This document shows, one piece after another, positions 1,687 to 43,884 of a stretch of 64,000 nucleotides of DNA. Both the position numbers and the translations under genes were made by a program. The notes beneath the pieces were generated by a model. That model ran no database searches and was not told where the DNA came from. It worked only from the letters and a program-made list of their open reading frames with translations. Within the stretch, counting starts at the first letter, position 1; every line of letters begins with the position of its first letter. This stretch comes from Flectonema sp. DT1601 (Eukaryota), in NCBI GenBank assembly GCA_964019425.1, contig OZ025780.1:124001-188000 (forward strand), in the 5' to 3' direction.

Positions 1687-3732
1687 TCATCGATCTTGTT
1701 TGTCTTCAGTATCAGAATCCTCACCCTCACGTAAGTTAGTCATAATATTTCCCCATCCGTCCTGTGTGGTTAGTGTTTGTTATTTGTGAAGTACAATTGA
1801 GATATGAAACAAAACTAATAAATACCTTCCAGCGACTCCTATCAGCAGTTGAAGGTGCTTCTTCCGGGTAACCCGAAAACACTAAAACATCTTTTTGCTC
1901 AGAACTGCTCGCCATGGTAGACCTCGGCTGGGGAATCTCGCAATCGATTGGAATTATGTTCTTTGCTGGGGTTGGATCGGTCGACTTAACTTCCGTCGTT
2001 GGCTTCTTTTTCTTCTTGCGAGGTGCTGGTGCAGAACCAACTGTGACAGGAGTCGTGTCTCTTACTATCAGCTGTGGTGTATTTGTTTTGTTTTCGATGA
2101 AGTTGACAAGAAAATTGAAAACTGAAAAAGGAAAATTTTTCTCAAAATCCTTGAGAACTTTGCGGTTCCAGTTTAATACCAGCGCGCTGAAGACTAACTT
2201 ATAGCTCAGCGTTCATTATCAATTATTTAACAACACAACACAACATAATAACATACAAGTTCGGTAGGTGTTTCGTGTTCAGGAGGAGGTACCTTCGATC
2301 GGTCGGTATCTTTTACTTGTGGAGGAGTTGGATCGCATGGGACAGAGACAACAGGAACTTTTGCATTTATTAACCAGGGGAACTGTAATAGCTCAACAGC
2401 ATTTGGTCTCTTTTTATAATCATGTTCCATCATAGATCTCACACACTCCAGTGAGACTCTGGGAAGGGCAACAGCCCACGTGGGGAATCTGATTGGGTTT
2501 TGTTTTGTAGATGTCAGGCGGGATTTATACAGGCTTTCCTATCGATAAGAAAAATAAATAGAACCGCTTTCTAAATTCCATAAATTTCATTCATTGTTTT
2601 ACTACAGTTTTTTTAATTAATTAATAGTTCTTAACGTCCATTGGAGTCGAATCAGAACGTAGTAAGTGTTTGCTTACCTAACAATGATGATAATTAATTG
2701 AATAAAAAAATAGAAAATAGAAATGTAAAAAAAAACTTTAAAAAAAGAATCAGAGAAGTTGGTAATCATTATAACAACCAGACTGTGAGAAAGACTTTTT
2801 TAAATAAATAAAAACAATAATTAATAAGCATACTGAATTCCATTCATCATTCGTTTTCGGATCTCTTGAAGGCGAACATTCCGATCTTGACAAGTTTCAG
2901 TAGGAAGTGGAGCGTATGGAAGTCTACCCAAAAGCATTGCATATGTAACGACACCAGCTCCGTAAATATCTACTTTCGGAAGCTCGCCTTTTGAAGTTTG
3001 CCAAACACGCTTTCCTTTTAACGAGCTGTCAATCATTCCGTTGATAGCTTCGAGTGCTGCGTACTGCTCAGTAAATGAAAATGGAGTTACGAGAACACCT
3101 GGACTGTCTGCTTTAAGAAGACCATCTCCAGCTCGTGGAGGAAACACATTACGAGGTGCTGATGCTTTACCGACTGATTTGGAAGCTCCGAAATCGATTA
3201 ATTTAATAGCGAGAGTCTGTGGTTGTATTAATATGTTTTCAGGTTTAACATCTCTGTGGACAATGCGATTGCTGTGGAGGTACGCGAGAGCTTCCAAAAG
3301 TTGTCGGAGAATGATAGCAGCGTCAGGCGGGTCAACAACTTGTTTTGTTCGAATGAATTCGAATAAAGTACCTGGACAAAGAGTTGTAATTGCGTACAGT
3401 GATTCTGGAGTGTGTAATGCTTTTAGTAGTGATAAACACGCGTGGTGTTTTACAACTTTCATTACAGCAATCTCCACCAGATGTTGTTTTAATATTTTTG
3501 GATTTTCAAGTTTCTTTTTTGACATTTCCTTGACAGCGACCATCTCACCAGTTTTTCTGTCTCGCATTCTTCTAACTACCCCGTAGCTTCCCTTTCCAAT
3601 AAATCCCTCATCGGGTTTTCCGTCTTCATCAACATCACCGGCCTTACCAACTAACTCATACTCGTTATTGATGTTGGAGATCGCTCCGGCAATTTTATTT
3701 AACTTTTCAGAAACATCATCAGGTTTCAACAT
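1687..3732 (-). CDS. Ser/Thr protein kinase, CAMK-group-like; exons 3732-2834, 2488-2257, 2071-1826, 1761-1687
   Basis: Motifs GKGSYGVV, VAVK, HRDVKPEN, DFG, DIYGAG, RPNAVELLQFPW. GT...CAG introns join the exons in phase and complete the C-lobe. A likely 5'UTR intron (GTAAGT...TACAG) lies at ~3833-3775. Confidence 0.85.
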
Positions 3733-4174
3733 CAAAGAGCGGTAATCTCAGCTCACCTCACCTGATTACTGTCTGTAATGATATGAATTAAGTGATGAAT
3801 AATAATATGTGGGAATGACTTACTTTAAAATAGTTTTCATTAATTCACAATCATTTTTTTTTTTTTTTTTTTTTAAACTGGAAAAAACAAAAACAAAAAA
3901 CAAAACTGATATTTCGATTAAGGGCCATACACATCTCACTTGGTGGATGATGTCAGAGAATTGATATTTTTCCCCGGACTATGCGGAGCTCGGGTGTTGT
4001 TTCTTTCTCTTCGCTGCTTTTTTTTTTTTTTTTTTTTTTTAAATTTCCATTAAATATTTTTGTTTTCGCTTTATGAAAGAATCGAGCATCACTCAGCAGA
4101 GGAGTGGCACAGGGGAGCACGTAGTTTTTTTTTTTTTTCTTCTTTCCTTCTTCCAAAAAGAGAACATGGGTGCA

Positions 4175-5389: not shown

Positions 5390-7339
5390 CTAGTTCTTTA
5401 CACCCTGAGCTTCCTTGTGTATTCTCAAAGCATCTAATGCATCACGGACAGCGGCTTCAAGATTCGATAGTGGTCTGTTTTTTTCAGGTGTTTTTTTTTT
5501 TTTTTGTAAAAAAAAAATAAATACTATTGTTAAGTTCAGTATAAAAGACTACATACTCAAGAAGGTTTAACAGCTCTGCGATATCAGGACACCCGGAAGC
5601 AGAACCTGCGAGGAGCATTCCTGTGATCTTTCCCGCTCGCTGTTTTGTTATTTTTAAAAGTAAAAAATATTTTGAATCACACGGTTGGTTTATACATACG
5701 TCTTCTGGGTGGCCCATTTGCTTGATCTCGTGATAAATAATGGTACCGATGGCTTCACGTTGTTCCTGTTTGTTGGAATAGTTATAAATAATGATGTGAT
5801 GCACAGTTCTATTTATGTTCAAATTAAAATAAAACATACGCTGTCACTCTTAGATGACAAGTCTGCTAGCTGTCTGGCTATTTTACTTTGCTGAGAATTA
5901 TTTTTGTGAGCGAGGCCCGAGAATCCATTTGGACCCATGTGTGAGTTTCTCGCACCCTTTCCATGAACTGTTGGTGGAGCTACTCTGTTGAATGGCGCTG
6001 GCTTGCCCCAAACATCACCTTGGTAGCCACCTACTGGTCCTCCGAATTGTGGGTGAACTCCAAAAACTTGCTGTGGTGATGGCCCAGGTCCGAAGTTATC
6101 TTTCGTACTGTACTTTAAAGTGATTGACATCGATGATCCCTTCATTGGTTTTCCTCTCATAGCTGTGAGTGCCTTGTGAGCCATCGAAGGAGTGGCAAAA
6201 AAGACAATACCAGTGGCAGCATTGCTGGCTTCACGACGAATGTTAACCTGAGTAACGTCACCATGTTCTGCGAAGGCTGCCCGAATGGAGTTGTCGTCGA
6301 ATTTCGGATCAGGAATGCGGAAATATAATTTATTTTGATGAGATTTTCCACCAAAACCACCAGGATGATGTTGGTGGTGATGATGTGGCATGTGATGAGG
6401 GTGCATGCCAGGGTGTGGAGGAGGAGGCATTCCAACCATTGGCATACCAGGCGGCATCATGTAAGGTGACGGTGTCACGCTAGCACCAGTCCAGTACTGC
6501 GGTTGGTCAGCAGGGACACCAACTTCTTCGTCGAACATTTTTTTCAACTCCGAGTCTCTTTCTTTTCTTTTCATTGCTCTGGCAACATACAAGTCCTGAA
6601 AGTCAGTCAACCCTTCGATCGGCTTTCCGTTCATCTGATTAACGCATTCCTGCGCGTCATCCATACTTTGGTATGTAACAAACGCGAACTTTCTATCGTG
6701 TTCATCAATTTTAAGACAAACAGTAAGGACTGGTCCGTACAGTGAGAATGCCTCAACGAGTTGTCCCTCAGTTACCATGTCACCCAAATTCTTAACATAG
6801 ACGTTGTTAAAATTCGAGGAAACACTTTTTTTTGACTTAACAAACGGCTTCACAGCGATCGTGCTCCCGTTGAGGGACGTATTGTTATAACGTTGGAGAG
6901 CTAGTTTTGCTAAGTCATCAGATTCATATGCGACGTATCCATATCCGAGAGAGACACCAAAATCATCGGTTGCGACCTTACACGAATTGACTGCACCAAG
7001 AGCGCTGAAATGTGAATACAAGTCTCTGTTGGTGAAGTCTTGCGGTAAACCAGTTACATATAAATTACCTATTCCTAATTTCCTGGTTTTTGGATCCCTC
7101 ACAACCGGCATAATTCTCATCATCTTACCCTTCAAAGGGCTGTAATTCAATTTTTGAGTAGCAATTTTGCCCGCTCCAGGTTCAGCCATATTGACGTAGG
7201 CATACCCTAGTGAGACCTTAGTCTTTACATCTCTACAGACTGAGACAGAGCGAACGCGGCTAACTGCTCCGAATACTTGTTCTAAGTCTGCCTCAGTGAC
7301 ATCTAACCCTAGATCACCCACATAAAGCGAGTCAGACAT
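5390..7339 (-). CDS. PABP: Poly(A)-binding-protein-like: four RRMs, Pro/His/Gly-rich linker, C-terminal MLLE(PABC)-like domain; exons 7339-5840, 5765-5700, 5639-5557, 5474-5390
   Basis: RRM motifs SLYVGDL/SLGYAYVN, NLYVTGL/GYGYVAY, NVYVKNL/FAFVTY. Three GTATGT...CAG introns splice in phase to give EQREAIGTIIYHEIK...RAGKITGMLL...LEAAVRDALDAL, an MLLE-like domain. Confidence 0.85.
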
Positions 7340-7499
7340 ATTAATGATGACCTGAAGTAATTGAATTAGTGAATGAAATTACAGCAACAACCATCTATCA
7401 ATAACAAAACAGAACAAAGTTACCAGATAGTTAACACTAGTGAAACATGCAGGCATCTAAATACTATTAAGGGTAAATTTTTTTCGTTGATAATCTCAT

Positions 7500-8900: not shown

Positions 8901-9009
8901 CTTTGCTAACATTACAACACAATTCAAACAGGTCTGTCATTGCTCTATTTCCGCATTCCGTTTTGCCATGGGACGATGGAAGTACTTCGATGGAGGCTCA
9001 GATCTCGGA

Positions 9010-9320
9010 AGTGCTGGTATCTCGTATGTGCGTTGGTATCTCTTGCGTGTTGGTATCTCTTGCGCATAAAAAAAAATATTGAGTTAACATGATCAGTTTT
9101 ATTTAAAATTAAAGACAGACCGGAACTATTTGAAAATAAAATGTAGATGGGAAACAGTGAAAATTAAAATGAATGATAAAATTAAATGAGATTTATGACA
9201 TAACAGACCAGATAGAGAGTAATAAAGGGAAAAGGAAAACGGGAAGGGTTCATTCACTTAGTTAAAGTTAAGACCGATTAGTCAGTTTAAGGTCTTGACT
9301 AGGACCAACAAAAAAAAAAA
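9010..9320 (-). mobile_element. Diverged fragment of the retroelement 3' UTR
   Basis: Homologous to 19700-20060, including the GGTATCTC motifs and the aagaccg.ttagtcagtttaaggtcttgactaggacc block. Confidence 0.8.
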
Positions 9321-9449
9321 TAAATTTATTTTATGCTTTTCTAATGTCCCAAAGTTGGTTTATTTTACTTTTTTTTTTCTACAAGGGAACAGTCCAAAGC
9401 ATAAGTCCGAACAGCCCTAAGGCCAGTGAACGCACTGATTGTTAGGTAT

Positions 9450-10677
9450 TGTATCGATCGACTATGTCGATCACTTTCTATTTTCCGTCCTGGTCAAGAC
9501 GCTAAACTGATTGTTTTTTTTTCTTCAAAATTAATAAAAAAGAATATAAAAAAATACAAAAAAAAGAATAAACAATGTTATCATTGTTTTTTTTTATCGT
9601 TCGACTTTGTCGACTAATTTCTATTTTCCGTTTCTTTTCTTTAAAAAATAAATAAAAAGAATTTAAAATAAAAAAAAAGAATAAACAATGTTATCATTGT
9701 TTTTTTATCGATCGACTATGTCGATCACTTTCTATTTTCCGTCCTGGTCAAGACGCTAAACTGATTGTTTTTTTTTCAAAATTAATAAAAAAGAATATAA
9801 AAAAAATAAAAAAAAAAGAATAAACAATGTTATCATTGTTTTTTTTTTTATCGTTCGACTTTGTTGACTAATTTCTATTTTCCGTTTTTTTTCTTTTTAA
9901 AAAATAAATAAAAAGAATTTAAAAAAAAAAAAAGAATAAACAATGTTATCATTGTTTTTTTTATCGATCGACTATGTCGATTACTTTCTATTTTCCGTCC
10001 TGGTCAAGACGCCAAACTGATTGTTTTTTTTTTTCAAAATTAATAAAAAAGAATAGAATAAAAAAAAAAATAAAAAAATAGAATAAACAATGTTATCATT
10101 GGTTTTTTTTTTTTTATCGTTCGACTTTGTTGACTATTTTCTATTTTCCATTTTTTTCTTTAAAAAATAAATAAAAAGAATTTAAAATAAAAAAAAAAAA
10201 AGAATAAACAATATTATCATTGTTTTTTTTATCGATCGACTATGTCGATCACTTTCTATTTTCCGTCCTGGTCAAGACGCTAAACTGATTGTTTTTTTTT
10301 TTTCAAAATTAATAAAAAAGAATATAAAAAAAATACAAAAAAAAGAATAAACAATGTTATCATTGTTTTTTTTTATCGTTCGACTTTGTCGACTAATTTC
10401 TATTTTCCGTTTTTTTTCTTTAAAAAATAAATAAAAAGAATTTAAAATAAAAAAAAAGAATAAACAATGTTATCATTGTTTTCTTATCGATCGACTATGT
10501 CAATCACTTTCTATTTTCCGTCCTGGTCAAGACGCTAAACTGATTGTTTTTTTTTTCAAAATTAATAAAAAAGAATATTAAAAAAAATACAAAAAAAAAG
10601 AATAAACAATGTTATCATTGTTTTTTTATCGTTCGACTTTGTCGACTAATTTCTATTTTCCGTTTTTTTTTCTTTAA
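9450..10677 (+). repeat. Hairpin satellite array (retroelement 3' UTR type), truncated
   Basis: Alternating long and short units containing aaacaatgttatcattgttt, gatcgactatgtcgatc and cgtcctggtcaagacg. Confidence 0.9.
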
Positions 10678-12758: not shown

Positions 12759-14744
12759 ATTTTTCTTTGTTCCCACCTTATGATTTTCTTGAAGAAAGAA
12801 AATAGAAGTCATAATGGTGCTTCCCTCTGGAAGGGTTGTAAGCCATGGTGTCCAACTAAATTAAAGGACAAGTCTGGGATAATCCCTGCCAGAGGGGCGA
12901 GTATTCTACCATGGTTGAAATACTCTGGCAACTGATCTTCAATTTTATGTTGTTTGTTAGCTGCTGGTGTATCTTGATCATGTGTTGATACTTGCATATG
13001 TTTATTTGTAATCTTCTATTACAATTCTCTTTCTGTTCTGGTCTGTTACTTCATTTGTCTTTTTTAACTTCAGTTATATCCATTTTACTTTTTATTGTTT
13101 CCCATCTACCTTTTATTTTCTATTAGTTCTGGTCAGAAACTCCTGGGCAGCAAGAAGGAAAGCAGTTAAGTACTTCTGGGTGTTTGGCATCACCCCCCAT
13201 AGTGAGCAAGTACAACAGGTAGCATTGGTAGTCTGTTGATCCTGAGTGATCCCAGCTACAGTTTTGTTTTTCTTTCTTTTTTTTAGAACAAGATCAGGAC
13301 ATCCAAGCACTGCTGGATAGTTGCTGAATGCAGGGCCTGCCTGTGATTATAATAACAGGCTAAGTCATTTGTAGTTCATAGTTTACCTTTGATTTTATAA
13401 CTTCACATAGGTACTATGAACGATGAGAGATCCAGTGGGATCACTCAGGGTCTAGTAGAGACCACCAATGTTGTGCGTTGATAGGCAAGGTGACCAACCT
13501 TGACATTCTTTCTTTTCTCTCCTGTTGTGACAAACACAAAATACACACACAGCTTACAGTGTGTTCTTTGTGTATGTTTTCTTCAGGTGTGAGTAGTTTT
13601 TTTGTTCTTGCTCTTCAGGGAGGGCCTTAGCCAAAAGCTAACAGTCCAAATCTCACCTGGTAACTTAACCCTGAAGCATCGTAGGCTACCAGTTTCCTTC
13701 GAGAATCCGCAGATGGTGCAGGGCTAAACCGAGATGAGGAAGATAACACCCGCACACGGATGTTGAGATAACGTTTGTATGATGTTCATCCGGCTTGACG
13801 AGATTAGCAAAGACAAATACTCACGGATAGGTTGGGTTGTTCGTCAGGTCCTGATAGTTTTCTCAGCCTCTGGAAGTTTTACTGAGTGTATGTTTTCTTC
13901 AGGTGTGAGTAGTTTTTTTGTTCTTGCTCTTCAGGGAGGGCCTTAGCCAAAAGCTAACAGTCCAAATCTCACCTGGAAATTCAACTCAGTCCTTGTCAGT
14001 TTTGGCATCAAACCTGTAATGGTTTAATCATTACAGGTTATTTACTGAAATATTTGTTCTAAAAGTTGCTAAGTATTTCTCACTTAGAAATTTTTTATTT
14101 TTTTATTTTCAGCTTAATTAGCTACAAATTGTTTCTACTAAGTGTTTCTCACTTAGATTTTTTTTTTTGCTTTTCAGCTCCTTAAAAGCTGCTAAGTGTT
14201 TCTGCTAAGTGTTTCTCACTTAGAATTTTATTGTTATGTTCGTTTTCTATCCCCTCTTCTATCCCTTTTGTTCAAAAAAAGCGATGAGAAATTTCTCTCA
14301 TTCATGCTAAGATGCACTCTGAACTTTGATTTTTTGATCTGAGTGTGAGGGAATGACCTGTTAGTGCATTGGGCATAAGCTGGGCTGCAGTTTAGATGTC
14401 TTAGGTGTTAATAGGGGGTTCCTCTTAGCATTTTTCTTTGTTACCACCTTGTGATTTTCTTGAAGAAAAAAAATAGAAGTCATAATGGTGCTTCCCTCTG
14501 GAAGGGTTGTAAGCCATGGTGTCCAACTAAATTAAAGGGGAATTTCGATAAAGTGGGAAGTAACGGACTGGGAGCTTTTGGCTCCTGCCCTATTCCCGAT
14601 GTAAACTTTCTTTTTATTTTTATTTTTTTTTTTTAACAGGCCCAAAGGGCGACAATGATGGTTGCTGACCAAGGAATAATATTCAAATGAATTTTCGTTT
14701 CAAAGAAACGAACAGAATTGAGAGAGAGGCAGAGAAAAAAAAAA

Positions 14745-16315
14745 GGGCAAACTAGTGTTTACTACACAAATAGTTTCAGAACTAACCATTCATTACAAAA
14801 TCCAAAATGGCTGGGGGACCCAAAAACTGTATATGGGATGCATCGAGACCCGCACCTGTCTTTAAGAGCGGATGTGGTTCAGCGGAGGGAGCACTGACTT
14901 TGGATACCCGACGCCCAGGCTCAATCCCGACCAACGTCATTTTTTTTTTCACCGGATTTTTTCACCCAGAATAGGTATTAAGCTGGGGTATAGTGCAAGG
15001 GGGGGGCTTGCGTTCCGCCAAGAACTTGGCGGAACGCAAGCCCCCCCCCCAACCCCCCCCAAGGGGGGGGAGCCACTAATAAAAGCCAACCTCTCCCGTA
15101 CAAAGTCCAACCTCAAAAAACAAATTTGCTACTAATGGATATTAAGCTGGGAAGAGTGCAAGGGGGGGCTTGCGTTCCGCCAAGTTCTTGGCGGAACGCA
15201 AGCCCCCCCCCCAACCCCCCCCAAGGGGGGGTTGTATGTTCGATTTTGTAAAAATTACAACTGTGTTGTATCATAAAAACATAAAGATAATTTAACATTA
15301 GTTTTAAATACAGTGACTAAGGGTGATGCGCAACTTAGCATATTAAAGTAACTATAGGTTTCGAGAGTAATCCATATACCTCTTACCTCTATTCTCTCTC
15401 ATCAGTATGGTGTAGAAGTAAGTCAGTCAAATGTTGAGACTGAGTCATTCCAGTTTGCAGGACTGGAATGTAGTTACTTTGTGTTTCATGTTCATAAATA
15501 AAAAAAACATATTTTTTGCTGTTACTAGTTCGTAGCTCACTACTAGTGGAGCACTTTTCTACAATACATGTAGAAAGTGTTTTTAATTATCAAAGTCTGA
15601 TAATTGTTCCTTAGCATCAGGGATATCTGGAGTTGAAGATCTCTGTGAAATACTCATATCATCTGAAGAATCATGTTCATCTTGTTTGCTTCTTTTCTTT
15701 CGAGTATTTCTTCTGAGCATCGGTCTCATTGGACTCTGCGAGTTGAGTCTTTTTACCAATTTCAGTTTCTTCTTTTCCTTTCCCTTTGCTAATTTCTGTT
15801 TTTGTACTTCTTTAAGTTTCATTTTCTGTGCCAACTTATGTTCAGTACACTCATTTTTAAGCCTTTTCCGGTTGCTCAGGTATTTTTTGATTCTCACAAT
15901 TCGCATTGGACTCTGTGAGTTCAGTCTCTTGTTACCGCTTCTCTCTGGTTCATCAGCGACCGTTTGTGTTCCAAGGGGGGGGAGCCACTAATAAAAGCCA
16001 ACCTCCCCTGTACAAAGTCCAACCTGAAAAAACAAGTTTGCTACTAATGGATGTTAAGCTGGGGAAGAGTGCAAGGGGGGGGCTTGCGTCCGCCAAATTC
16101 TTGGCGGGACGCAAGCCCCCCCCCCAACCCCCCCCAAGGGGGGGGAGCCACTAATAAAAGCCAACCTCCCCGTACAAAGTCCAACCTGAAAAAAAAATCA
16201 GGAAAAAAAAAAAATGCCCTCACCCAGGATCGAACTGGACGGTTTACAGCCATTTTGGATTTTGTAATGAATGGTTAGTTCTGAAACTATTTGTGTAGGA
16301 AAGACCCCTTTACCC
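14745..16315. mobile_element. Non-autonomous TIR element (MULE-like), inserted in a poly(A) run
   Basis: ~70 bp imperfect TIRs with GGG termini and core ctacacaaatagtttcagaactaaccattcattacaaaatccaaaatggctg. Absent from the equivalent sites at 38825, 49650 and 60210. Confidence 0.85.
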
Positions 16316-16564
16316 AAAAAAAAAAAAAAAAAAAGAAAGAATAGAAAAAAAAAAATATGAAGAGGAAATAATCAAACATGAAAAAAAAAAAAAAACAAAA
16401 TATAAATAAAAAACGTTGTATGAAAAAGGAAAAAAAGAAAAAAAAAAGACCAGAAAAGGAAAGAGAAAATGAAAAGGTATAATATTATTGTGGGGATATG
16501 AGGATAGCAGGGAGATGCTCTTTTTTTTTTTTTTTTTTTTTTTTTATTTATTATTTAAAAAAAG

Positions 16565-16659
16565 GAAACAATCAGTTTAGCGTCTCGATCAGGACGGAAA
16601 ATAGAAATTAATCGACATAGTCGATCGATAGAAAAAAAACAATGATAACATTGTTTATT

Positions 16660-16693
<34 letters not shown>

Positions 16694-16947
16694 CTTTTAA
16701 TTATTTTAAAGAAAAAACAATCAGTTTAGCGTCTTGACCAGGACGGAAAATAGAAAGTAATCGACATAGTCGATCGATAAAAAAAAAACAATGATAACAT
16801 TGTTTATTCCTTTTTTTTTTTTTTTTTTTTTATTCTTTTCATTTATTTTTAAAGAAAAAACAATCAGTTTAGCGTCCTGACCAGGACGGAAAATTGAAAG
16901 TGATCGACATAGTCGATCGATAAAAAAACAATGATAACATTGATTAA

Positions 16948-16980
<33 letters not shown>

Positions 16981-17769
16981 TTTTAATTATTTTTTAAAGA
17001 AAAAACAATCAGTTTAGCGTCTTGACCAGGACGGAAAATAGAAAGTGATCGACATAGTCGATCGATAAAAAACAATGATAACATTGTTTATTCTTTTTTT
17101 TTTTTTTTTTTTTTTTTTTAATCCTTTTTATTATTTTAAAGAAAAAACAATCAGTTTAGCGTCTTGACCAGGACGGAAAATAGAAAGTGATCGACATAGT
17201 CGATCGATAAAAAAACAATGATAACATTGTTTATTCTTTTTTTTTTTTTTTTTTTTTAAATTCTTTTTATTTATTTTTAAAGAAAAAAAAACGGAAAATA
17301 AAAATCAGTCGACAAAGTCGAACGATAAAAAAAAAACAATGATAACATTGTTTATTCTTTTTGTTTTTGTTTTTTTTTATATTCTTTTTTATTAATTTTG
17401 AAAAAAAAACAATCAGTTTAGCGTCTTGACCAGGACGGAAAATAGAAAGTAATCGACATAGTCGATCGATGAAAAAAAAACAATGATAACATTGTTTATT
17501 CTTTTTTTTTTTTTTTTTTTTTTAATTCTTTTTATTTATTTTTTAAAAAGAAAAAAAAACGGAAAATAGAAATTAGTCAACAAAGTCGAACAATAAAAAA
17601 AAAAAAACAATGATAACATTGTTTATTCTTTTTTTTTTATTTTTTTTTTATATTCTTTTTTATTAATTTTCAAAAAAAAACAATCAGTTTAGCGTCTTGA
17701 CCAGGACGGAAAATAGAAAGTGATCGACATAGTCGATCGATAAAAAAAAACAATGATAACATTGTTTAT

Positions 17770-17802
<33 letters not shown>

Positions 17803-19410
17803 CCTTTTTATTATTTTTAAAGAAAAAACAATCAGTTTAGCGTCTTGACCAGGACGAAAAATAGAAAGTGATCGACATAGTCGATCGATAAAAAAACAAT
17901 GATAACATTGTTTATTCTTTTTTTTTTTTTTTTTTTTCTAAATCCTTCTTATTATTTTTTAAAGAAAAAACAATCAGTTTAGCGTCTTGACCAGGACGGA
18001 AAATAGAAAGTAATCGACATAGTCGATCGATAAAATAAAAACAATGATAACATTGTTTATTCCTTTTTTCTTTTTTTTTTTATTCTTTTTATTTATTTTT
18101 AAAGAAAAAACAATCAGTTTAGCGTCCTGACCAGGACGAAAATTAGAAAGTGATCGACATAGTCGATCGATAAAAAAACAATGATAACATTGTTTATTCT
18201 TTTTTTTTTGTTTTTTTTTTTTTTATTCTTTTTATTTATTTTTTAAAGAAAAAACAATCAGTTTAGCGTCTTGACCAGGACGGAAAATAGAAATTAGTCG
18301 ACAAAGTCGATCGATAACAAAACAATGATAACATTGTTTATTCTTTTTTTTTTTTTTTTTTTTTTTATTCTTTTTATTTATTTTTTAAAGAAAAAACAAT
18401 CAGTTTAGCGTCCTGACCAGGACGGAAAATAGAAAGTAATCGACATAGTCGATCGATAAAAAAAACAATGATAACATTGTTTAATCTTTTTTTTTTTTTT
18501 TTTTTTTATTCTTTTTATTTATTTAGAAAAAACAATCAGTTTAGCGTCTTGACCAGGACGGAAAATAGAAATTAGTCGACAAAGTCGATCGATAAAAAAA
18601 CAATGATAACATTGTTTATTCTTTTTTTTTTTTTTTTTTTTTAAATTCTTTTTATTTATTTTTTAAGAAAAAAAAGAAAATAGAAATTAGTCGACAAAGT
18701 CGAACGATAAAAAAACAATGATAACATTGTTTATTCTTTTTTTTATTTTTTTTTTTTATATTCTTTTTTATTAATTTTGAAAAAAAAAAACAATCAGTTT
18801 AGCGTCTTGACCAGGACGGAAAATAGAAAGTAATCGACATAGTCGATCGATAAAAAAACAATGATAACATTGTTTATTCTTTTTTTTTTTTTTTTTTTTT
18901 TTTAAATTCTTTTTATTTATTTTTTAAGAAAAAAAAACGGAAAATAGAAATTAGTCGACAAAGTCGAACGATAAAAAAACAATGATAACATTGTTTATTC
19001 TTTTTTTTATTTTTTTTTTTTTATATTCTTTTTTATTAATTTTGAAAAAAAAAAAACAATCAGTTTAGCGTCTTGACCAGGACGGAAAATAGAAAGTAAT
19101 CGACATAGTCGATCGATAAAAAAACAATGATAACATTGTTTATTCTTTTTTTTTTTTTTTTTTTTTTAAATTCTTTTTATTCATTTTTTAAGAAAAAAAA
19201 ACGGAAAATAGAAATTAGTCGACAAAGTCGAACGATAAAAAAACAATGATAACATTGTTTATTCTTTTTTTTATTTTTTTTTTTTTATATTCTTTTTTAT
19301 TAATTTTGGGAAAAAAAAAAACAATCAGTTTAGCGTCTTGACCAGGACAGAAAATAGAAAGTAATCGACATAGTCGATCGATAAAAATACAATGATAACA
19401 TTGTTTAATC
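16565..19410 (-). repeat. Hairpin satellite array in copy A 3' UTR (~145 bp and ~120 bp units)
   Basis: atcagtttagcg recurs at 16571, 16720, 16863, 17008 and onward. Short units lack the atcagtttagcgtcttgaccagg block. Confidence 0.95.
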
Positions 19411-20519
19411 TTTTATAATTTTTTATTTTTTTTTTTGTTTTAAAAAAAAAAAAAAAAACAAGCGGAATTGATCATAATGGGTGGTAGGGGTTGTTATAAC
19501 TTCGTTTGAAAATTCTTCTTTTTTGATTTCTTTTTTTTTTTCTTTTTACAGGAGTTAAGATCACTGTCAGGAGACAACACATTAACAAGAGCAGCAAGCA
19601 GAGTTGACACTATCAATTCAAATTTGAAATACCGGGAATTAATTTACAAGGAGGTATCTCAAGTGACTTGGTATCTCTAGCGTGTCGGTATCTCTGGAGT
19701 GCTGGTATCTCGTATGTGCGTTGGTATCTCATGAGTGATGGTATCTCTTGTGCATTAGAGAAACGAAAAAGAATGTCATGACCATGACGGAAGAATTGAG
19801 GAATTGAGTTAACATGTTCAATTTAACTTATTTAAACTTTTTTTTTTTTTTAACAGACCGTAACTATTTGAAAATAAAATGTAGATGGGAAACAGTGAAA
19901 AGTAAAATGGATGATAAAATTAAATGAGAAATATGACATAACAGACCAGATAGAGAGTATTAAAAGGAAATTGAAAAGGAAAAGAGAAACTAGGTTAACA
20001 CTTATTTAAAATTAAGACCGGTTAGTCAGTTTAAGGTCTTGACTAGGACCAACAAAAAAGAAAGAAAAAAAATTAACGATCAAGCTGAGCTGATCTTGTT
20101 TTTATTACAAATAGGGGAGCGGGAGGGATGGAAGGAATAGAGGAAAAAAAAAGAAAAGGTTGATCATTTGGATCTGATCGTCGAGAAGAAGAAATTATTT
20201 TAAAGGTTGATCGGTATAGCCGATCGTTGAGAAAAATAAACAGATATAAATACAATCAGTTTAAATTAAAAAAAGAAAAAAAGATTAACGATCAAGCTGA
20301 GCTGATCTTGTTTTTATTTAAAATTAGGGGAGCGGGAGGGATGGAAGGAATAAAGGAAAAAAAAAAAAAGGTCGATCAATTGGAACTGATCGTCGAGAAG
20401 AAGAAAACAATTATTTATAAAAAAAAAAAATGGTCGGTATAGCCGATCGTTGAGAAAAGAACAGATATAAATACAATCGGTTTTGGTGATCGACGAGTGG
20501 AGCGATCACTTGACAAGAA

Positions 20520-20912
20520 GGTAATTGTCCTTCCATGCTTTGCACCTGTCGAAATAATAAAACTTAAAAACTACACACGCACCAATAACAAGCGATTACA
20601 CTAGAACGCGCGATTGCAAGAACACCCTGGTTCAAGGTGGCTCGCTGCGGCGGGGTAACTGAAGTCCGTTTTCGTTGGACTCAGCTCCACCACGGGGTGG
20701 AGGGGTGAGGAGGGTGGGCTTCGAAAACGTGAGTGTGAGAGAAAGAAGTGATCGAGCTGTATAAAGAATTTCTTTTTGAAAAAATAGAAGGCTAAAGAAT
20801 ATATAAAAAATGTCTGTTGTTTTGTTCATTTTTCCAACTTCGGAATCATACACTTTTCTGTCTGATTCCTTTGATTATTTCTTTCCGGTGCTAAGCTTGG
20901 TGGAAAATTACC
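20520..20912. mobile_element. ~390 bp MITE with GGTAA termini (Merlin-like?)
   Basis: Absent from the other copies. ~40 bp imperfect TIR: ggtaattgtccttccatgctttgcacc versus ggtaattttccaccaagcttagcacc. No clean TSD. Confidence 0.65.
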
Positions 20913-21378
20913 TGAATGAATTCTAGAAAAAGAAAGGACCGATTAATTGGGGCTTTGATTGTATTCCCAAGGCATGTTTTTTTTTTTTTTTTTTTTATTA
21001 TTCATTTACATTATTATTTTTTTTTTTTTTTTTTAAATTAATAATCACATTTTGTTCAAAAATATTTCATATTAGAGTAAAAGAAAAAGAAAAAAAGAAA
21101 TAAGAGAAAAAAAAAAAAAAAACCATTGCTGGCCCCCTCACCACTCATAGAGGATGAGGAGGCCAGTAAGGCGTCACTCAAATCTATGCCAAGCCTTGGG
21201 AACTTGGATTGGGGTTTAGACCATTTATAATTAACAATTAACAATTAACCTGATTAACGTTATGATCTGACGGACATAAACATATCGATAAAATAATACA
21301 AACAAAAACGAACAATAAATAATAAATAAGCTAAAAAACTAAATAAACAAAGTGATGTGAAAGTAAGGAAAAAGAGAA

Positions 21379-22161
21379 TTACAAGGGGGTGGAGTCACCG
21401 TGAACGTCATCAGCAGAACATCTCCTTCGATTGTAACGATATCTTGATGGAGGGGTTCGTTTTTTCAGAGTTGAACGCTCAGACTTTCTCGGCGGAGTTT
21501 CATTTTCCTCATGTTCTTCTGTGTCTGGCGGACTCAAACCTTCTGCCCATGAAGCTAATTGGAACTTCAGGGCCGCAATTTGAGACCGTGCCAAGGCGAG
21601 TTGAGCATTTAAATCGCTCGCCAGTCCCGTTAACATCATGGATTGCTCAAGCTGCTCTGCGTGAGTTGTACACCGTTGGTGATTCAGCTCCGAGAGGCGA
21701 AGTTGGGCATCCAGAAGTTGTTCTGAGAGCTCTGCCGCTTTCTCGTTTGTTTCGAGAGAGTCATCTACTGCTCGACAGTAATTCTCGAGTAAGTCAATCC
21801 TACCCTCGGACCATTGTCTCGCAATAGGTGTATTCTCTTTAACGGAGATAACGTGACTCTCTTGTCGTAAAATCTTGGTCGGCGTGCGGTCGAGAGCTTC
21901 ACTCTGCGGCATTGTCGGAGGAATTGAGGCTAGAGGACAAAGAGGGGTGATATAATTAAGGGTAGGGATAAGGGGTTTAATAAGAGGAGTAAAAAGACTA
22001 CTCGTAGTTGTAAAGAGCGAGAGGTAGTTCTTTGCTATCTTCATCATAGCAACAGATTCATACAGAACGGGGGTTCGGGGGGAAACTTGTTGACTAAAGT
22101 GGGTCATACGGGGACGCGCGGCACGCAAACTCTCGACCTCCTGTTGAGTATAGAAAAGTCT
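21379..22161 (-). pseudogene. 3' part of copy A ORF2, cut off by the nested insertion
   Basis: Matches the last ~260 aa of the 1406 aa ORF. Confidence 0.9.
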
Positions 22162-33846: not shown

Positions 33847-36800
33847 TTACTTTCTCTTTCCTCATTACATTTGGTCTCCAATTCGTTCGACAGAAGAACA
33901 AACCTTTGATGGTAATTAAAGAGCGCCATTTCCGATAGGTCTGCTCTCTGAGTCAGATTTGCGAGCTCACGTTTCCTGTAATCTTCCACTAAGTCATATT
34001 GTCGAACTAGTGCAGAAAGAGAAGTCTTCGATTCATCGCGTTCTGCTGTTAACCGTTGAATTACTCCTTCCAGAAGTTCATATTCTTTTCTATCTTTTTC
34101 AATAATTAAAACAGGGGGCGCAGGAGGAAGTGAGGATGGATCCTGGTTGGTAGCTTTGATCTCAACAGGTAATCCATTTAGTAACTGCTTGTCTTTCTCG
34201 AGGGAGGCTGACATCGCATTAAAGTAAAATAAAAATAGAACATAAAAAATTCGTTCTTTCATTTGCTCTAATTCGTTTTCTAAAATCTGGCATTTCAAGG
34301 AAAGTTTCAGCCTTAATTTTCCTTCTTTTTTTTTGTACAAGGGGGTTTGAGAACCCATGTCAGATTGAGTTCTTATCACTATAGCGAAATCAGCAGGAAG
34401 TGTTTGCGATCCCGTTGACATGAGTTCAGGTGGGGGAGTCTGGAAAGAGATGGAAGAAATAGAAGAGAATGACAAGGAGAGTCCAGTGAGCTCATCCTCA
34501 TCTAACAAAACAGAAGGGGCCGGGGAGGAAGAACCATTGGCAATAAGTAGAATAGAAAGAGCCGATGCGTAACAAGTTTGCCAGATAAAACATTTCTCAA
34601 GCCACGATCTTTCAATGGTGAGCTTTTCGATCGTTTTCAGTTTTGTTACTTTGTGGATTTTGACTTCTTCCACAGGGAAGATTTCTTTACCATCTTTTAT
34701 AAAACTTGCAGTGGCAGGTTCTTCTTTAATGCTGCGCATTAGTGGTCTTGAATGCCACGTGGGGAGGTTCCTCGTCTGGAACAGAACATATGAGCACTGT
34801 CTGGCGATTCTGGTGCATTCACAAAATAAAGCTTTTGTTGGTGCTAAAGGTGAACCGATGTGACGTGTCCAGATGTTCAGCTGGTCCATGCAGATGTTTC
34901 CTCGTACGCCAACTTCAATAGTAAAAATGTTACAGTCGAAGCCATTAGCGATGATCGAGTCTCTTAGCTTTAGGTATTTCTTTTCCTTTAAGACATGAGA
35001 GGTTTCGAAACGATCTTCATTTGGACACGTCAGCTCCAGAATCAGTGCTCTTTTCGCAAAAAAAGAATAAATAAAAATGTCTGGTCTTAGAGAGGACGAG
35101 ACATGGCACACTTCAAGAGGAACAATTAGGCGGTTATCACCGACATCGTCGAGGATGACCCAATCATTCGCTAGTGAAAGTTCGCCTGTCTCTTTAGAAA
35201 TTCTTTCTAGGGGTTTATTTTCCCCTGTTTTTAAAAAAGTTTGAGAGGGAGGCGGGAGGTTTTCTTTTCTTTTGTTGGCTTTTATTATCAACTCTTCCAA
35301 GAAGATAACAATGCGTTTTAGAACGCTGTCGTGACGCCACGTGAACCTCCCTTGTGTTAAAGAGACAGGACAGCCTGTTAAGACATGCCTGAGGGTAGGA
35401 TTCACTTTGCCACACAAAACACAATTTTGGTCCACATTGGTGATGTTCCACCTCTTTAAATTATCTTGTGAGGGGAGGGTGTTTGTAACCGCTTTCAGTT
35501 GAAATGAGATATAGGCAGGATTTCCCTCCCTAAGTACCTTATTCCAGGTGAAGTCGTTTATCATACATTTAGACCACTCCTTCCATTGACCTTGGACTTG
35601 TAATTTATTCAAAGAGTTCAGTAGTTCATCTGTGGCTTCCACTTCAAAACGCTTAAGGAGATCGGGGCGAGTAGTACGTAGATCGCGCAATCGGTGACCA
35701 AGACCAGCTGATTGCTTCGCAAGAGAACGGTAAGAAAAAAACTTAATAAGGCGCTCCCACTCAGCAGAAGCTGAAAACTTTTTCGACCAGTTGGACGATT
35801 TCTCCATAATAACATTGTAGACACCGTGCATGTCAGAGTCCTGTGAGGATCTGAGGATGTCTAGTTTAATTGATTGCGCTTGTTTATATAGCGTCTCAAC
35901 TCTTTTGTGTCTGAGACCAACAGTGTTCTTTGAACCGGTAAAAAGGATGACTGTGTTCGCAGAGCGGACAAATCCCCACCATTTCTTCAAAAAAGGTTTA
36001 ATAATTTTGTCCATTTTTTTGGCAAAAGGGAGAGATAAGTCATGGATCATTAAACTCCATGTTAACCTTGACAATAACAAGTGTTGGACAGACCAAGCCT
36101 TCTGAGACCCATATAGTGGCATGGCGTCGACTTTTTTTAAAAAATTCCTGGTAAAAGTGGTCAGGCGCTCTCGCAATTTCTGTTCTTTGGCGTTCGGCTC
36201 AAACCAACGCCCGAGGTATTTGAACTCTCCAGCTTCCTGGAGATTCGTAATCGGAACATTGTTAATCTTCAGGTCCGGGTTAGCTGGTTTCCCTTGTACA
36301 AAGCTGTGGGCAATGCATTTCTGGGGTTTCGCTTTCATACCTCGAGACCAGGAAAGAAACTGTTCGAGCGACTTGATTAGCAATTTTGCCCCCGCCTTTG
36401 ATGACGTGGTAAGTTGTAAATCATCAGCAAAAGCTGCAACTAATAGTTGGAGGGATTTATTGTTAAACTCGTAGGCTTCCTGTTGATGAACTGCTAAGGA
36501 AAAGAGCAGTAGTTGGAATACCAAATTAAAAAGGGTTGGGGAGGAAACGCAGCCTTGAAAGACACCAACTTCAAAAGGGATAGTGGGCGTCAGGCCTTCT
36601 CCAACTCTGATTTGGACGCGCATGGAGGAATAATACCTTTTATAGAAACCGATTATTCTTTCGTGAATTCCGAAATATTTTAAAGCAAAGAAAATTAATT
36701 GATGTTTGACTGAGCCGAAAGCATCTGCCAAATCCACCCAGACAATTGTTAGGTTTTTCCGGAGAGCTTTCACTTCTTTAAAAATCTCTGAGGTGATCGT

Positions 36801-37280
36801 GGCATGTTCGATACACCCAGAGACACCTTTCCTAAAGCCTTTTTGAAAATTAAATTTAGAAAGAGTGTGGCTTGCGACGGCTTCCTGAATAACCGTATTA
36901 AAAATTTTCCCGTCGCAGTTGCCCACAGCTATCGGTCTCGTTTTCGAGATGTCTTTCCCATCGGAGTTGGGCTTTGGGAGCATTGTTACAAATGCTAAGC
37001 CCCAACTATCCGGATAGGCCTTGAGTTCGAAAATTCTCTTTAATACCTTGTAAAGTGCTTCCATAAAAGTTGGGACCTTTTTCCATACAACATAAGGTAT
37101 GCAATTGGGACCAGGGGCACATTTGTTTTTTTTCTTTGATAAGAGAATACCAAACTGTTCGAAGCTCGGGAACTGGATATCATCCATTGTCTTGTAGTCA
37201 GACTTAGGTAAAAAAGAGGGATGGGTGAAATCAGTTTTTTTTTTTTTCATTGTCACAATAATTGTTTTTAAAATGTTCAA
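33847..37280 (-). pseudogene. Copy A ORF2 (RT, CCHC knuckle, RLE, part of the extension), interrupted at 33847
   Basis: Matches the 1406 aa ORF up to ESKI. Confidence 0.9.
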
Positions 37281-38187
37281 TTATTTTTTCCTCTGGAATA
37301 TCAAGGGAGGGGGGTTGAGGATCTTCTTTTTGGAGTTCTTCTTTTATGGCAGTAAACGGATTTTGACGAAATTTATCTTGTAATTTTTTGAATAAATTTT
37401 TCTTTTCTAAATTCCGATACATTCGGAAAATCCTTTTCATTCTCGTTCTTGCCTCTTTCCATTTGACAGCGTTCTCTATAGAAGGCCCAGATTTGCGGAG
37501 CTCCTGTCTTAGCTGTTTCATTTCCAGACGACATTCAAGTTTTTCTTGGTCGAGGATGACCTCTTCCCTTGATTTCTGTTTGCGGGGTAAATTCCGCTTT
37601 GTTTCTTCAAAGAAACCGCTACATATTTGATAAACCGTTTTGAGTAGTTTATCAAGTTGGTCGGCAGGTTTTGAAGAGTTTTCTGTTTCGACGGTGAAAG
37701 TTTGAAGTTTTTCTGCAGCAGAAACGTCGATGTCCTTCCATTCAGTTCCAAAAGATCGGAATTTGAGACGAGACGGGTGTAACGGGGTAAAAGTGGGTGT
37801 TGTAGAGTTATAAGGAACGAAAGCTGTTTGTGAAGTTTTAAAATCTACAGATTCTCCTACAAAGGGAGGTTCCAGGTCTGAATTATTCCCTGTGAGGGGA
37901 GACAGAGGTGTACCTTTACATGTACCGTTAACACAGTGTTTCGCTCTCGTAGCGATACTTTTGAAAAGCTTACCACATTCTGGACAAGGTAAGTGGTAAC
38001 AATCTTTAACTTGGGAGTGGGTAGATGGGGGAAAACGTGACTTATAGTCCTTAAATTCCTTACTAAACTTACAGTTACGTCTAAAATGCGCAACTGGACC
38101 TTTGAGGTATGTCTCAAAACATAAAGGACATTTGGCTACTAAAGTTTTATCCCCATCCAGAGCCGATCTCGAAATAGCCTCTTGCAA
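37231..38187 (-). CDS. Copy A 5' ORF (two zinc-finger motifs, basic helical region)
   Basis: CPLC...H....C and CPECGKLF.......H.....C motifs. The ORF-track start is TTG. Confidence 0.8.
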   Translation of the reverse strand: MQEAISRSALDGDKTLVAKCPLCFETYLKGPVAHFRRNCKFSKEFKDYKSRFPPSTHSQVKDCYHLPCPECGKLFKSIATRAKHCVNGTCKGTPLSPLTGNNSDLEPPFVGESVDFKTSQTAFVPYNSTTPTFTPLHPSRLKFRSFGTEWKDIDVSAAEKLQTFTVETENSSKPADQLDKLLKTVYQICSGFFEETKRNLPRKQKSREEVILDQEKLECRLEMKQLRQELRKSGPSIENAVKWKEARTRMKRIFRMYRNLEKKNLFKKLQDKFRQNPFTAIKEELQKEDPQPPSLDIPEEKIIEHFKNNYCDNEKKKN

Positions 38188-39074
38188 AGCCTCGGGGGCT
38201 GGGTTGGCTGAGAGATGGTTGCCAGTATCTTTATGACACCGCCGGCCCGGTGTTTCTTTTTTTTTTTGTTGTGAAGTAGCAATAATAAAAAAAAAAAAAA
38301 ATAGAAAAGAGAATGGCTCAGAAACAATATCGATGAGTTAAGATCTTTTTTTTTAAACTATTCCTTTTTTTTTAATTTCGGGCAGCTAACCCTAGAGTTT
38401 TTTTTTGGTAAATACTGTTTAAAGGAAAACGAGCTACGCTCTAAAACAGAAAAATCGGAGTAACTACTTGTTTATAATATATATTTTGATAAATAATGTG
38501 GTTGGCAAATGAATGCCGAAGAGGCAACTTGAGAAAAGCAATTGGATGAGAAGAAACATTGGGTCTTATAAAGCAAAGGAGATAGAGGGGCCTAAAAAGA
38601 CCGCAGAGTGGATAGCTCCACAAAAGGCTGAATTTCGATAAAGTGGGAAGTAACGGACTGGGAGCTTTTGGCTCCTGCCCTATTCCCGATGTAAACTTTC
38701 TTTTTATTTTTATTTTTTTTTTTTAACAGGCCCAAAGGGCGACAATGATGGTTGCTGACCAAGGAATAATATTCAAATGAATTTTCGTTTCAAAGAAACG
38801 AACAGAATTGAGAGAGAGGCAGAGAAAAAAAAAAAAAAAAAAAAGAAAGAATAGAAAAAAAAAAATATGAAGAGGAAATAATCAAACATGAAAAAAAAAA
38901 AAAAACAAAATATAAATAAAAAACGTTGTATGAAAAAGGAAAAAAAGAAAAAAAAAGACCAGAAAAGGAAAGAGAAAATGAAAAGGTATAATATTATTGT
39001 GGGGATATGAGGATAGCAGGGAGATGCTCTTTTTTTTTTTTTTTTTTTTTTTTATTTATTATTTAAAAAAAGGA

Positions 39075-39166
39075 AACAATCAGTTTAGCGTCTCGATCAG
39101 GACGGAAAATAGAAATTAATCGACATAGTCGATCGATAGAAAAAAAACAATGATAACATTGTTTAT

Positions 39167-39199
<33 letters not shown>

Positions 39200-39453
39200 C
39201 TTTTAATTATTTTAAAGAAAAAACAATCAGTTTAGCGTCTTGACCAGGACGGAAAATAGAAAGTAATCGACATAGTCGATCGATAAAAAAAAAACAATGA
39301 TAACATTGTTTATTCCTTTTTTTTTTTTTTTTTTTTTATTCTTTTCATTTATTTTTAAAGAAAAAACAATCAGTTTAGCGTCCTGACCAGGACGGAAAAT
39401 TGAAAGTGATCGACATAGTCGATCGATAAAAAAACAATGATAACATTGATTAA

Positions 39454-39486
<33 letters not shown>

Positions 39487-42330: not shown

Positions 42331-43884
42331 ATAATTTTTTATTTTTTTTTGTTTTAAAAAAAAAAAAAAAAACAAGCGGAATTGATCATAATGGGTGGTA
42401 GGGGTTGTTATAACTTCGTTTGAAAATTCTTCTTTTTTGATTTCTTTTTTTTTTTCTTTTTACAGGAGTTAAGATCACTGTCAGGAGACAACACATTAAC
42501 AAGAGCAGCAAGCAGAGTTGACACTATCAATTCAAATTTGAAATACCGGGAATTAATTTACAAGGAGGTATCTCAAGTGACTTGGTATCTCTAGCGTGTC
42601 GGTATCTCTGGAGTGCTGGTATCTCGTATGTGCGTTGGTATCTCATGAGTGATGGTATCTCTTGTGCATTAGAGAAACGAAAAAGAATGTCATGACCATG
42701 ACGGAAGAATTGAGGAATTGAGTTAACATGTTCAATTTAACTTATTTAAACTTTTTTTTTTTTTTAACAGACCGTAACTATTTGAAAATAAAATGTAGAT
42801 GGGAAACAGTGAAAAGTAAAATGGATGATAAAATTAAATGAGAAATATGACATAACAGACCAGATAGAGAGTATTAAAAGGAAATTGAAAAGGAAAAGAG
42901 AAACTAGGTTAACACTTATTTAAAATTAAGACCGGTTAGTCAGTTTAAGGTCTTGACTAGGACCAACAAAAAAGAAAGAAAAAAAATTAACGATCAAGCT
43001 GAGCTGATCTTGTTTTTATTACAAATAGGGGAGCGGGAGGGATGGAAGGAATAGAGGAAAAAAAAAGAAAAGGTTGATCATTTGGATCTGATCGTCGAGA
43101 AGAAGAAATTATTTTAAAGGTTGATCGGTATAGCCGATCGTTGAGAAAAATAAACAGATATAAATACAATCAGTTTAAATTAAAAAAAGAAAAAAAGATT
43201 AACGATCAAGCTGAGCTGATCTTGTTTTTATTTAAAATTAGGGGAGCGGGAGGGATGGAAGGAATAAAGGAAAAAAAAAAAAAGGTCGATCAATTGGAAC
43301 TGATCGTCGAGAAGAAGAAAACAATTATTTATAAAAAAAAAAATGGTCGGTATAGCCGATCGTTGAGAAAAGAACAGATATAAATACAATCGGTTTTGGT
43401 GATCGACGAGTGGAGCGATCACTTGACAAGAAGGAAAAAGAAAGGACCGATTAATTGGGGCTTTGATTGTATTCCCAAGGCATGTTTTTTTTTTTTTTTT
43501 TATTATTCATTTACATTATTATTATTTTTTTTTTTTTTTAAATTAATAATCACATTTTGTTCAAAAATATTTCATATTAGAGTAAAAGAAAAAGAAAAAA
43601 AGAAATAAGAGAAAAAAAAAAAAAAAAACCATTGCTGGCCCCCTCACCACTCATAGAGGATGAGGAGGCCAGTAAGGCGTCACTCAAATCTATGCCAAGC
43701 CTTGGGAACTTGGATTGGGGTTTAGACCATTTATAATTAACAATTAACAATTAACCTGATTAACGTTATGATCTGACGGACATAAACATATCGATAAAAT
43801 AATACAAACAAAAACGAACAATAAATAATAAATAAGCTAAAAAACTAAATAAACAAAGTGATGTGAAAGTAAGGAAAAAGAGAA

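Follow-up and report, generated by a model that had tools for sequence, protein, structure and literature searches.

What keeps several kilobases of hairpin-bearing tandem repeats in the 3' end of a mobile element? The question is raised by a 64,000-nt stretch of the genome of Flectonema sp. DT1601 (assembly GCA_964019425.1, contig OZ025780.1, positions 124,001 to 188,000 of the forward strand; hereafter the window, to whose numbering all coordinates refer), in which copies of an R2-like retrotransposon carry arrays of ~145-bp units with three short inverted repeats each. The original prediction, made from the letters of the sequence, saw in these units a set of conserved hairpins—an RNA scaffold, a small-RNA precursor or DNA binding sites—and also a route by which satellite DNA could spread by retrotransposition. 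The comparisons set out below support the second of these proposals and not the first. Because the hairpins show no sign of selection, we put at roughly 0.6 the probability that the array is a hitch-hiking, concertedly evolving satellite in the 3' untranslated region (UTR) of an R2-type element, rather than a selected RNA or DNA structure.

Structure of the array

Tandem Repeats Finder places the array of the first copy considered, copy A, at 16521-19443 (period 142, 21.2 copies, score 2776), an interval that contains the 16565-19410 originally proposed. The same repeat recurs in the window at 9452-10677, 29141-33449, 39030-39786 plus 40824-42350, 49854-50608 plus 51648-52910, and 60415-62440. 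Cutting every array at the first palindrome of the unit (hp1) gave 100 units, amounting to 67 distinct sequences: 70 long units (defined as 130 bp or more; found to be 135-151 bp) with three short inverted repeats, and 30 short ones (112-127 bp), which are without about 25 nt including the third palindrome (hp3). The copy A array has 21 hp1 anchors, its long units being 135-149 bp and its short units 115-127 bp. Exact unit counts may be subject to assembly artefact; contigs from four other sequencing runs contain both the unit and the end of the element's 3' tail.

Read on the element's sense strand, which is the minus strand at 16521-19443, a long unit is headed by hp1 (AACAATG-TTAT-CATTGTT), followed by a run of T, the second palindrome (hp2, GATCGAC-TAT-GTCGATY), a 14-nt spacer, hp3 (CGTCCTG-GT-CAAGACG) and GCTAAACTGATTG; the remaining 3' part is T-rich, passes into an A-rich linker and closes with an A run and GAATA. 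The closing A run is present in every unit (median 20 nt, range 7-28), and A makes up 42% of the sense strand. The hp2 core, TCGAC-NNN-GTCGA, is paired in 65-67 of the 67 distinct units while its middle loop base varies (A in 39, T in 22, C in 6), so that the kept stem and variable loop noticed at the outset are confirmed, as is the ~145-bp unit with three inverted repeats. On the same strand the stem of hp3 contains a C.A mismatch in 38 of the 46 distinct long units and is perfect in the other 8. The further proposal, that ~120-bp units alternate with long ones to make a ~264-bp dimer, stands in part: a higher-order period of 264 (4.9 copies) was found at 18138-19436, but the order of long (L) and short (s) units in copy A, LsLsLsLLLLLLLsLsLLLL, confines the alternation to part of the array.

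A motif scan found hp1, hp2 and hp3 confined, within the window, to the arrays. Comparison of the unit with the rest of the element gave a sole, weak likeness, a 24-mer of the unique UTR that resembles hp3 (87.5%, E 0.049). This single segment, at 20024-20050 (also 9270-9310), lies in unique 3' UTR about 590 nt from the array and may be a trace of the source of part of the unit.

The array travels with the element and changes length

The position of the array, between the stop codon of the second open reading frame (ORF2) and the 3' terminus of the element, was correctly foreseen for copies A, C, D and E; a fifth copy, G, is cut before its ORF. From ORF2 stop to array the distance is 1.5 kb in C, D and E and 1.9 kb in A, which has an extra 404 bp (an insertion at 20522-20925 that C, D and E are without); the whole 3' UTR measures 5.0-5.3 kb in C and D. 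Between the array and the 3' end of the element there is always a unique tail of 400 nt.

Copy E (22162-33846, plus strand) is truncated at its 5' end within ORF2 and inserted in the ORF2 of copy A. Its insertion is clean, the flanks matching positions 44667 and 44669 of an intact ORF2, with a target change of at most a few bases. It comprises part of ORF2 (22165-24567), unique UTR (27957-29148), an array of 4.3 kb with 32 hp1 anchors (29141-33449) and the 3' tail (33449-33846), and has thus brought unique UTR, array and tail to a new site in a 5'-truncated form. Since copy E lies inside the ORF2 of copy A with an array of its own, the array belongs to the transposed unit and is neither an insertion target nor a 5' feature.

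The array changes in length as well as place, from 2.9 kb (21 hp1 anchors) in A to 4.3 kb (32) in E, and from 2.3 to 4.3 kb across copies. Copies C and D are segmental duplicates, because they share a 1039-bp insertion that splits their arrays (39786-40824 in C, 50610-51648 in D) and that A and G are without; about 0.9 kb of array found in copy A is missing at this insertion. Over 5254 aligned columns, 1 mismatch and one 264-bp indel separate the 3' UTR of C from that of D, which is the shorter. The indel is exactly one long-plus-short dimer, and this difference is a change at the level of DNA, not a product of reverse transcription. Copy E contains repeated blocks, with identical units returning at a distance of about 1 kb and a row of three identical units of 123 bp, and the short units of E have a TCT loop with ATCGATCGAC where those of A have TTT with ATCGTTCGAC, a difference due to within-array homogenisation. 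Between A and G, and A and D, the arrays show 17 differing columns in about 3.3 kb, 11 of them homopolymer-length indel columns and 6 substitutions; the adjoining unique UTR shows 1 in 1078. An array that moves with its element and changes length therefore provides a route for moving satellite DNA, and in this the original prediction is upheld by the carriage of the array in copy E.

Apart from the element the satellite is represented in the window by one 1.2-kb fragment (F, 9452-10677), which is not colinear with element parts. In the four other runs the summed contig depth over the unit is 36-63 times that over the tail end, as against about 20 units per tail in the window, depth not being copy number.

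On the sense strand the element ends in ...CCCACTTTATCGAAATT, with no poly(A) tail. This terminus abuts unrelated DNA at 14541 (copy A) and the ORF2 sequence of another copy at 33846 (copy E); at 38631, 49455 and 60016 it reads ...ATCGAAATT and is joined directly to CAGCCTTTTGTGG, the start of the next copy, the four minus-strand copies G, D, C and A standing head to tail through these identical joints. Candidates for the origin of the first head-to-tail dimer are double insertion, a template jump and exchange. Contigs of two of the other runs (X1 and X3) continue from the 3' terminus into other sequence; the 5' leader at 38390-38600 and the low-complexity middle of the tail had no cover from contigs of the other runs. 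No shared target was found in the flanks beyond the terminus (14540, 33847, the head-to-tail joint, and X1/X3), the junctions being few and a loose preference possible.

Tests for selection on the hairpins

The 67 distinct units were aligned over 19 stem pairs (alignment A1), in which 93.6% of the cells are paired. The original prediction had proposed covariation among the units as its test. None was detected: a compensatory change, on both sides of the pair, occurs in 0 of the 19 stem pairs; the covariation score was equalled or exceeded in 372 of 500 shuffles; and RNAalifold retained merely 10 invariant pairs, with a covariation term of 0. Stems mutating as freely as loops had been named as the outcome that would count against a selected structure, and the minor-allele share is 5.13% in stems (120/2339 cells) and 5.17% in loops (29/561), with 2.92% in non-homopolymer spacers (51/1746).

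In hp2, 28 of the 67 units break the second pair (38-52) and 50 of the 67 have G.U as the outermost one, which can wobble on the sense strand but is mismatched on the antisense. The C.A of hp3 (pair 71-78, in 38 of 46) behaves in the opposite way, with a mismatch in the sense orientation and a wobble in the antisense; and hp3 is missing altogether from 30 of the 100 units. Wobble-compatible variants thus occur on both strands, and the functional strand was rightly called ambiguous. To judge from the alignment, this ambiguity fits decaying DNA palindromes better than selected RNA, and a selected hairpin function for the array is not supported.

The 100 units are one ancestral sequence amplified and do not count as 100 independent observations. 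Long units gave folding z-scores of -2.3 to -3.6 over both strands (-2.5 to -3.6 on the sense strand), and their centroid folds show the three hairpins; the short unit reached only -0.57 on the sense strand. Judged against 5000 dinucleotide-preserving shuffles, two perfect stems of at least 7 bp with at least 2 G/C pairs in one unit are far more than expected (shuffle mean 0.04, P 0.0006); a looser count (at least 6 bp, any composition, including A/T-rich stems) fell short of significance (P 0.165). Palindromes were truly abundant in the ancestral unit.

Searches for known RNAs gave nothing. No Rfam family reached its gathering score anywhere in the window; Rfam E-value searches of the head-to-tail joint and of three units returned chance-level matches, far under gathering scores, and no ribozyme, hepatitis delta virus-like or other; and a tRNA scan found no tRNA.

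A probable hitch-hiking satellite

R2 proteins begin reverse transcription on their 3' UTR RNA, and satellites arising inside transposable elements are an accepted source of new tandem DNA. By analogy with R2, reverse transcription of the present element would start on the terminal 400-nt tail and run on through the array, which would be copied passively. Between units, unequal exchange or replication slippage would then lengthen and shorten it. One ancestral piece of UTR, ~145 bp long, would be the source of both the palindromes and the 20-nt A runs, whose likeness would be kept by recent amplification and concerted evolution and not by selection for pairing.

Several observations weigh against this account. 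No copy seen with a 3' UTR lacks the array, as would equally be expected if the element needed it. The most uniform part of the unit is hp1 with its loop (minor alleles in 3 of 938 cells, compared with 51 of 1746 in the spacers), and this uniformity could be a sequence-level constraint. Recent substitutions between near-identical arrays fall in stems in 0 of 6 cases where about 1.6 would be expected, a deficit that is not significant. The lack of covariation is itself weak evidence, because the units are so alike that the test has little power. Finally, the ancestral unit was not random sequence, since two perfect palindromes per unit are improbable by chance (P 0.0006, as above).

The locus displays several stages of the formation of a transposon-borne satellite together: a multi-kb satellite within intact-looking copies, its transfer in 5'-truncated form, a change of one dimer, and whole elements repeated head to tail. 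R2-type elements are usually compact and site-specific, and are under engineering for gene insertion; that a UTR of about 5 kb is tolerated ahead of the 400-nt tail suggests, on the R2 analogy, that only the tail may be needed to start reverse transcription. The finding is a further case of a known kind, a satellite in a mobile element, and makes no new category.

Alternative explanations

The alternative that survives best, though we consider it unlikely, is a cis-acting element in the sense RNA: about 20 internal A runs, together with the small hairpins, might recruit a poly(A)-binding protein or a protein of the element, and would so stabilise a tail-less RNA or help its translation or packaging. 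An A run closing every unit, a sense strand rich in A, a 3' terminus devoid of A tail and the hairpins in the centroid folds of long units (sense z -2.5 to -3.6) are all what such an element would be expected to have. Against it stand the absence of covariation, the C.A mismatch that hp3 bears on this very strand in 38 of 46 distinct long units, and a short unit that folds no better than shuffles; moreover the A runs vary freely in length and are the main place of recent indels.

An element acting at the level of DNA is quite improbable in our estimate. The array would, by analogy, be a promoter, enhancer or nucleosome-excluding region for the next copy, and its palindromes sites for a dimeric protein. 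In the head-to-tail series it does lie some 0.7 kb upstream of the frame of the following copy, and four copies are joined there through identical junctions (38631, 49455, 60016). The hp1 loop is uniform to the same degree as the hp1 stem, which speaks for a sequence-specific site more than for an RNA stem, and the variants seen disrupt pairing on either strand. Precedents are described in passages of one paper (PMC5537684), where a promoter in the HeT-A 3' UTR drives the downstream element and the Giardia elements GilM and GilT lie head to tail with long 3' UTRs. The tandem may nevertheless be one local accident amplified, because C and D are products of a segmental duplication; unrelated DNA adjoins the ends of copies E and A, where the array has no downstream copy to serve; and no telomeric repeats were found in the window. 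That the array is a working module of either sort, of nucleosome size, with dyad symmetry and punctuated by A tracts, a promoter or chromatin organiser for the next copy in the manner of HeT-A or an internal substitute for poly(A) on the RNA, strikes us as a long shot; if true, each retrotransposition would plant a ready-made functional satellite at a new site.

Known Dicer substrates are far longer than the stems of the array, and at 5-8 bp these are too short for the array to be a convincing source of small RNA. The related idea, that the element has seeded a satellite of centromeric type—nucleosome-sized, AT-rich and dyad-rich—has in its favour a 135-151-bp unit with short dyad symmetries and A tracts, the existence of fragment F apart from colinear element parts, and the 36-63-fold unit/tail depth in the four runs as against about 20 in the window, with the reservation on depth already made. 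No long element-free block of the satellite occurs within the window, however, and the exact hp1-plus-hp2 pattern had 0 matches in metagenome contigs. We regard both ideas as very improbable.

The last candidate makes the satellite the target into which a site-specific element inserts. It draws on the target specificity for repeated sequences of most elements with a restriction-like endonuclease (RLE), as stated in one paper (PMC4640811), and on the satellite that flanks each tandem copy on both sides, but it is contradicted, to the point of being barely credible, by the unique 400-nt tail that always stands between array and element 3' end, by 3' ends that abut another copy's ORF2 (E), DNA of no relation (A) or the 5' end of the next copy in flanks with no common motif, and by copy E, which carries its own array inside an ORF.

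The carrier retrotransposon

Three sets of frames on the minus strand each consist of a 368-codon frame (ORF1), Cys/His-rich and without ATG, overlapping a 1406-codon ORF2 at an A run. The overlaps, at 48056-48105, 37231-37280 and 58616-58665, are common to all three copies and could reflect one ORF with a frameshift, programmed slippage or an assembly homopolymer error. ORF1 has weak C2H2 matches only (Pfam E 0.19; PDB E 0.82), its Cys/His spacing being visible by eye.

ORF2 contains a reverse transcriptase domain (RVT_1, residues 102-357, E 5.4e-26) and zf-RVT. Neither ORF1 nor ORF2 has a match to the apurinic/apyrimidinic endonuclease (APE) family Exo_endo_phos, with E values of up to 1 admitted. 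By sequence its best relatives of solved structure are R2 proteins (E 1.8e-32), L1 ORF2p standing at about 1e-19. Across 25 aligned relatives ten positions of residues 600-860 are invariant (C21, H33, C38, R50, H51, D113, P134, D135, E150 and K166), a CCHC plus PD..E..K pattern such as characterises the PD-(D/E)XK restriction-like endonuclease. Residues 600-860 alone had no phmmer match in PDB; an AlphaFold model of them (predicted local distance difference test score 82.1) gave R2 as its top six structure matches (best E 5.4e-07, TM 0.53), followed by viral PD-(D/E)XK cap-snatching nucleases. The reverse transcriptase match, the lack of an AP-endonuclease, the CCHC and PD..E..K residues and the model together therefore identify the carrier, as far as sequence and modelling can, as an R2-type, restriction-like-endonuclease retrotransposon without long terminal repeats (non-LTR).

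Beyond the predicted endonuclease ORF2 stays open for about 550 codons (residues ~860-1406, at 43885-45525). This C-terminal extension has no counterpart in 78 relatives from metagenome contigs, most matches ending at ~842-860 and none passing 927; it has generic coiled-coil look-alikes (scores no higher than 0.90) and a weak Pfam match to PPP1R21_C (E 0.056; 13.9 bits, under the 27.3-bit cut-off), and may represent either a domain specific to the element or a segment captured from the host.

The family is abundant: its ORF2 cluster at 90% identity counts 235 member sequences, spread over many large contigs, and an 82% subfamily has 47. The relatives in metagenome contigs (78 loci) are 26-40% identical. 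Downstream of the ORF match, 8 of the 78 have a tandem repeat of period at least 20, the largest being 676 bp of 186-bp units (locus L015), a survey that says little since only 16 of the 78 loci have at least 1 kb downstream and assemblies break at arrays.

Comparison with known systems

The closest likeness is to R2, which the reverse transcriptase sequence and the modelled C-terminal endonuclease match best, and with which the element shares a defined 3' end without poly(A); the N-terminal frame, a candidate zinc-finger region by weak matches, may be a further likeness. It differs from R2 in having no ribosomal DNA target here, the flanks seen being without a common motif; in a 3' UTR of 5.0-5.3 kb (copies C and D); in two overlapping frames instead of a single ORF; and in the ~550-aa coiled-coil-like extension of ORF2.

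HeT-A, TART and TAHRE are APE-lineage elements with poly(A) tails, whereas the present element is of RLE type and has no tail; all are non-LTR elements with unusually long 3' UTRs, arranged head to tail in one direction. PMC5537684 describes for HeT-A the long 3' UTR, the head-to-tail order and a 3' promoter serving the downstream neighbour. A search of the window for runs of ten common telomere repeat patterns found none, and host-type genes lie at 2.8-7.4 kb. The same source gives head-to-tail arrays and unusually long 3' UTRs for Giardia GilM and GilT, which resemble our element by description in both respects, the arrays running in one direction, but are subtelomeric; GilM is used as an outgroup for the clades of RLE type in PMC4640811.

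Satellites derived from retroelement 3' UTRs are listed in sections of a review (PMC9659126): from the hypervariable 3' UTR of Ogre (Ty3/gypsy), from the HeT-A 3' region (18HT), from the L1 3' end (the cetacean common satellite) and from CR1 (HinfI). As in those cases, going by the same sections, our array is in the 3' non-coding part of a retroelement, is variable in copy number and spreads with the element. It is unlike them in its carrier, an R2-type (RLE) element, in its 2.3-4.3 kb of ~143/120-bp units within intact-looking copies, and in the unique 400-nt tail that follows it. At the scale of whole elements, tandem dimers of transposable elements are common in Drosophila and can expand into arrays, according to the abstract of McGurk and Barbash (2018, PMC5932611); copies C and D resemble these in being whole elements head to tail, duplicated at the DNA level, and differ in the finer satellite nested within each repeated element. 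A literature search, covering papers outside subscription, found no R2-type element with a multi-kb 3' UTR satellite and no diplonemid case of a retrotransposon repeat.

Other features of the window

Copy A is broken three times, reading from its 5' end 38630 to 33844, copy E, 22161 to 16316, a 1571-bp element, and 14744 to 14541. Its 5' part (33844-38630, minus strand, as is the rest of the copy) holds the 5' part of ORF2 (33844-37280), the ORF1 frame (37231-38337) and the 5' leader (to 38630). Beyond copy E follow the 3' end of ORF2 with its stop codon (21379-22161), the non-array 3' UTR (19444-21378), the array and, directly after it, the proximal half of the 3' tail (16316-16520); the distal half, recognised by comparison of the copies, is at 14541-14744 and ends in the terminus. 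The 1571-bp insertion that splits the tail (14745-16315) is foreign to the element and has terminal inverted repeats of ~55 bp and a 9-bp flank overlap. A 17-bp repeat of GGTATCTC type occupies 19653-19748.

Copy C (38631-49454, minus strand) is full length, with tail (38631-39030), the divided array (39030-39786 and 40824-42350), unique UTR (42351-43884), ORF2 (43885-48105), ORF1 frame (48056-49162) and 5' leader. Its segmental duplicate D (49455-60015, minus strand) is likewise full length, and copy G (60016-62440, minus strand), head to tail with D, is represented by its 3' part, the tail and an array that breaks off against unrelated DNA at 62441.

The 3' UTR of copy E is interrupted at 24913-27957 by a DNA transposon of Mutator-like element (MULE) type, with a transposase with SWIM finger on the minus strand (25854-27659); it is bounded on its two sides by minisatellites of 20 bp in inverted orientation (24920-25111 and 27761-27923), with a duplication of about 8-9 bp of UTR at the flanks. 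The unique 3' UTR of E also contains a 211-bp tandem dimer (87% alike) at 28109-28531, equivalent to 42970-43396.

Array fragment F (9452-10677, plus strand) has 9 anchors, is about 88-92% like the other arrays, and is not colinear with any ORF2 or tail. Its neighbourhood (region 9002-10677) includes a piece like the unique UTR (87-91% identity) in opposite relative orientation, and F ends at 10677 at unrelated DNA; from its sequence the region would be a rearranged remnant or a diverged subfamily.

Two intronless genes of host type lie near the start of the window: one for a four-RRM, poly(A)-binding-like protein (5819-7378), in which a PABC domain was not found and whose best named relative, from Diplonema papillatum, is only 40% identical, and one for a protein kinase (2821-3747). 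Another repeat is present at two places, 98.7% alike: at 13008-14108, past the 3' end of copy A by ~0.4 kb, and at 62897-64000, past the break in the copy G array by ~0.5 kb.

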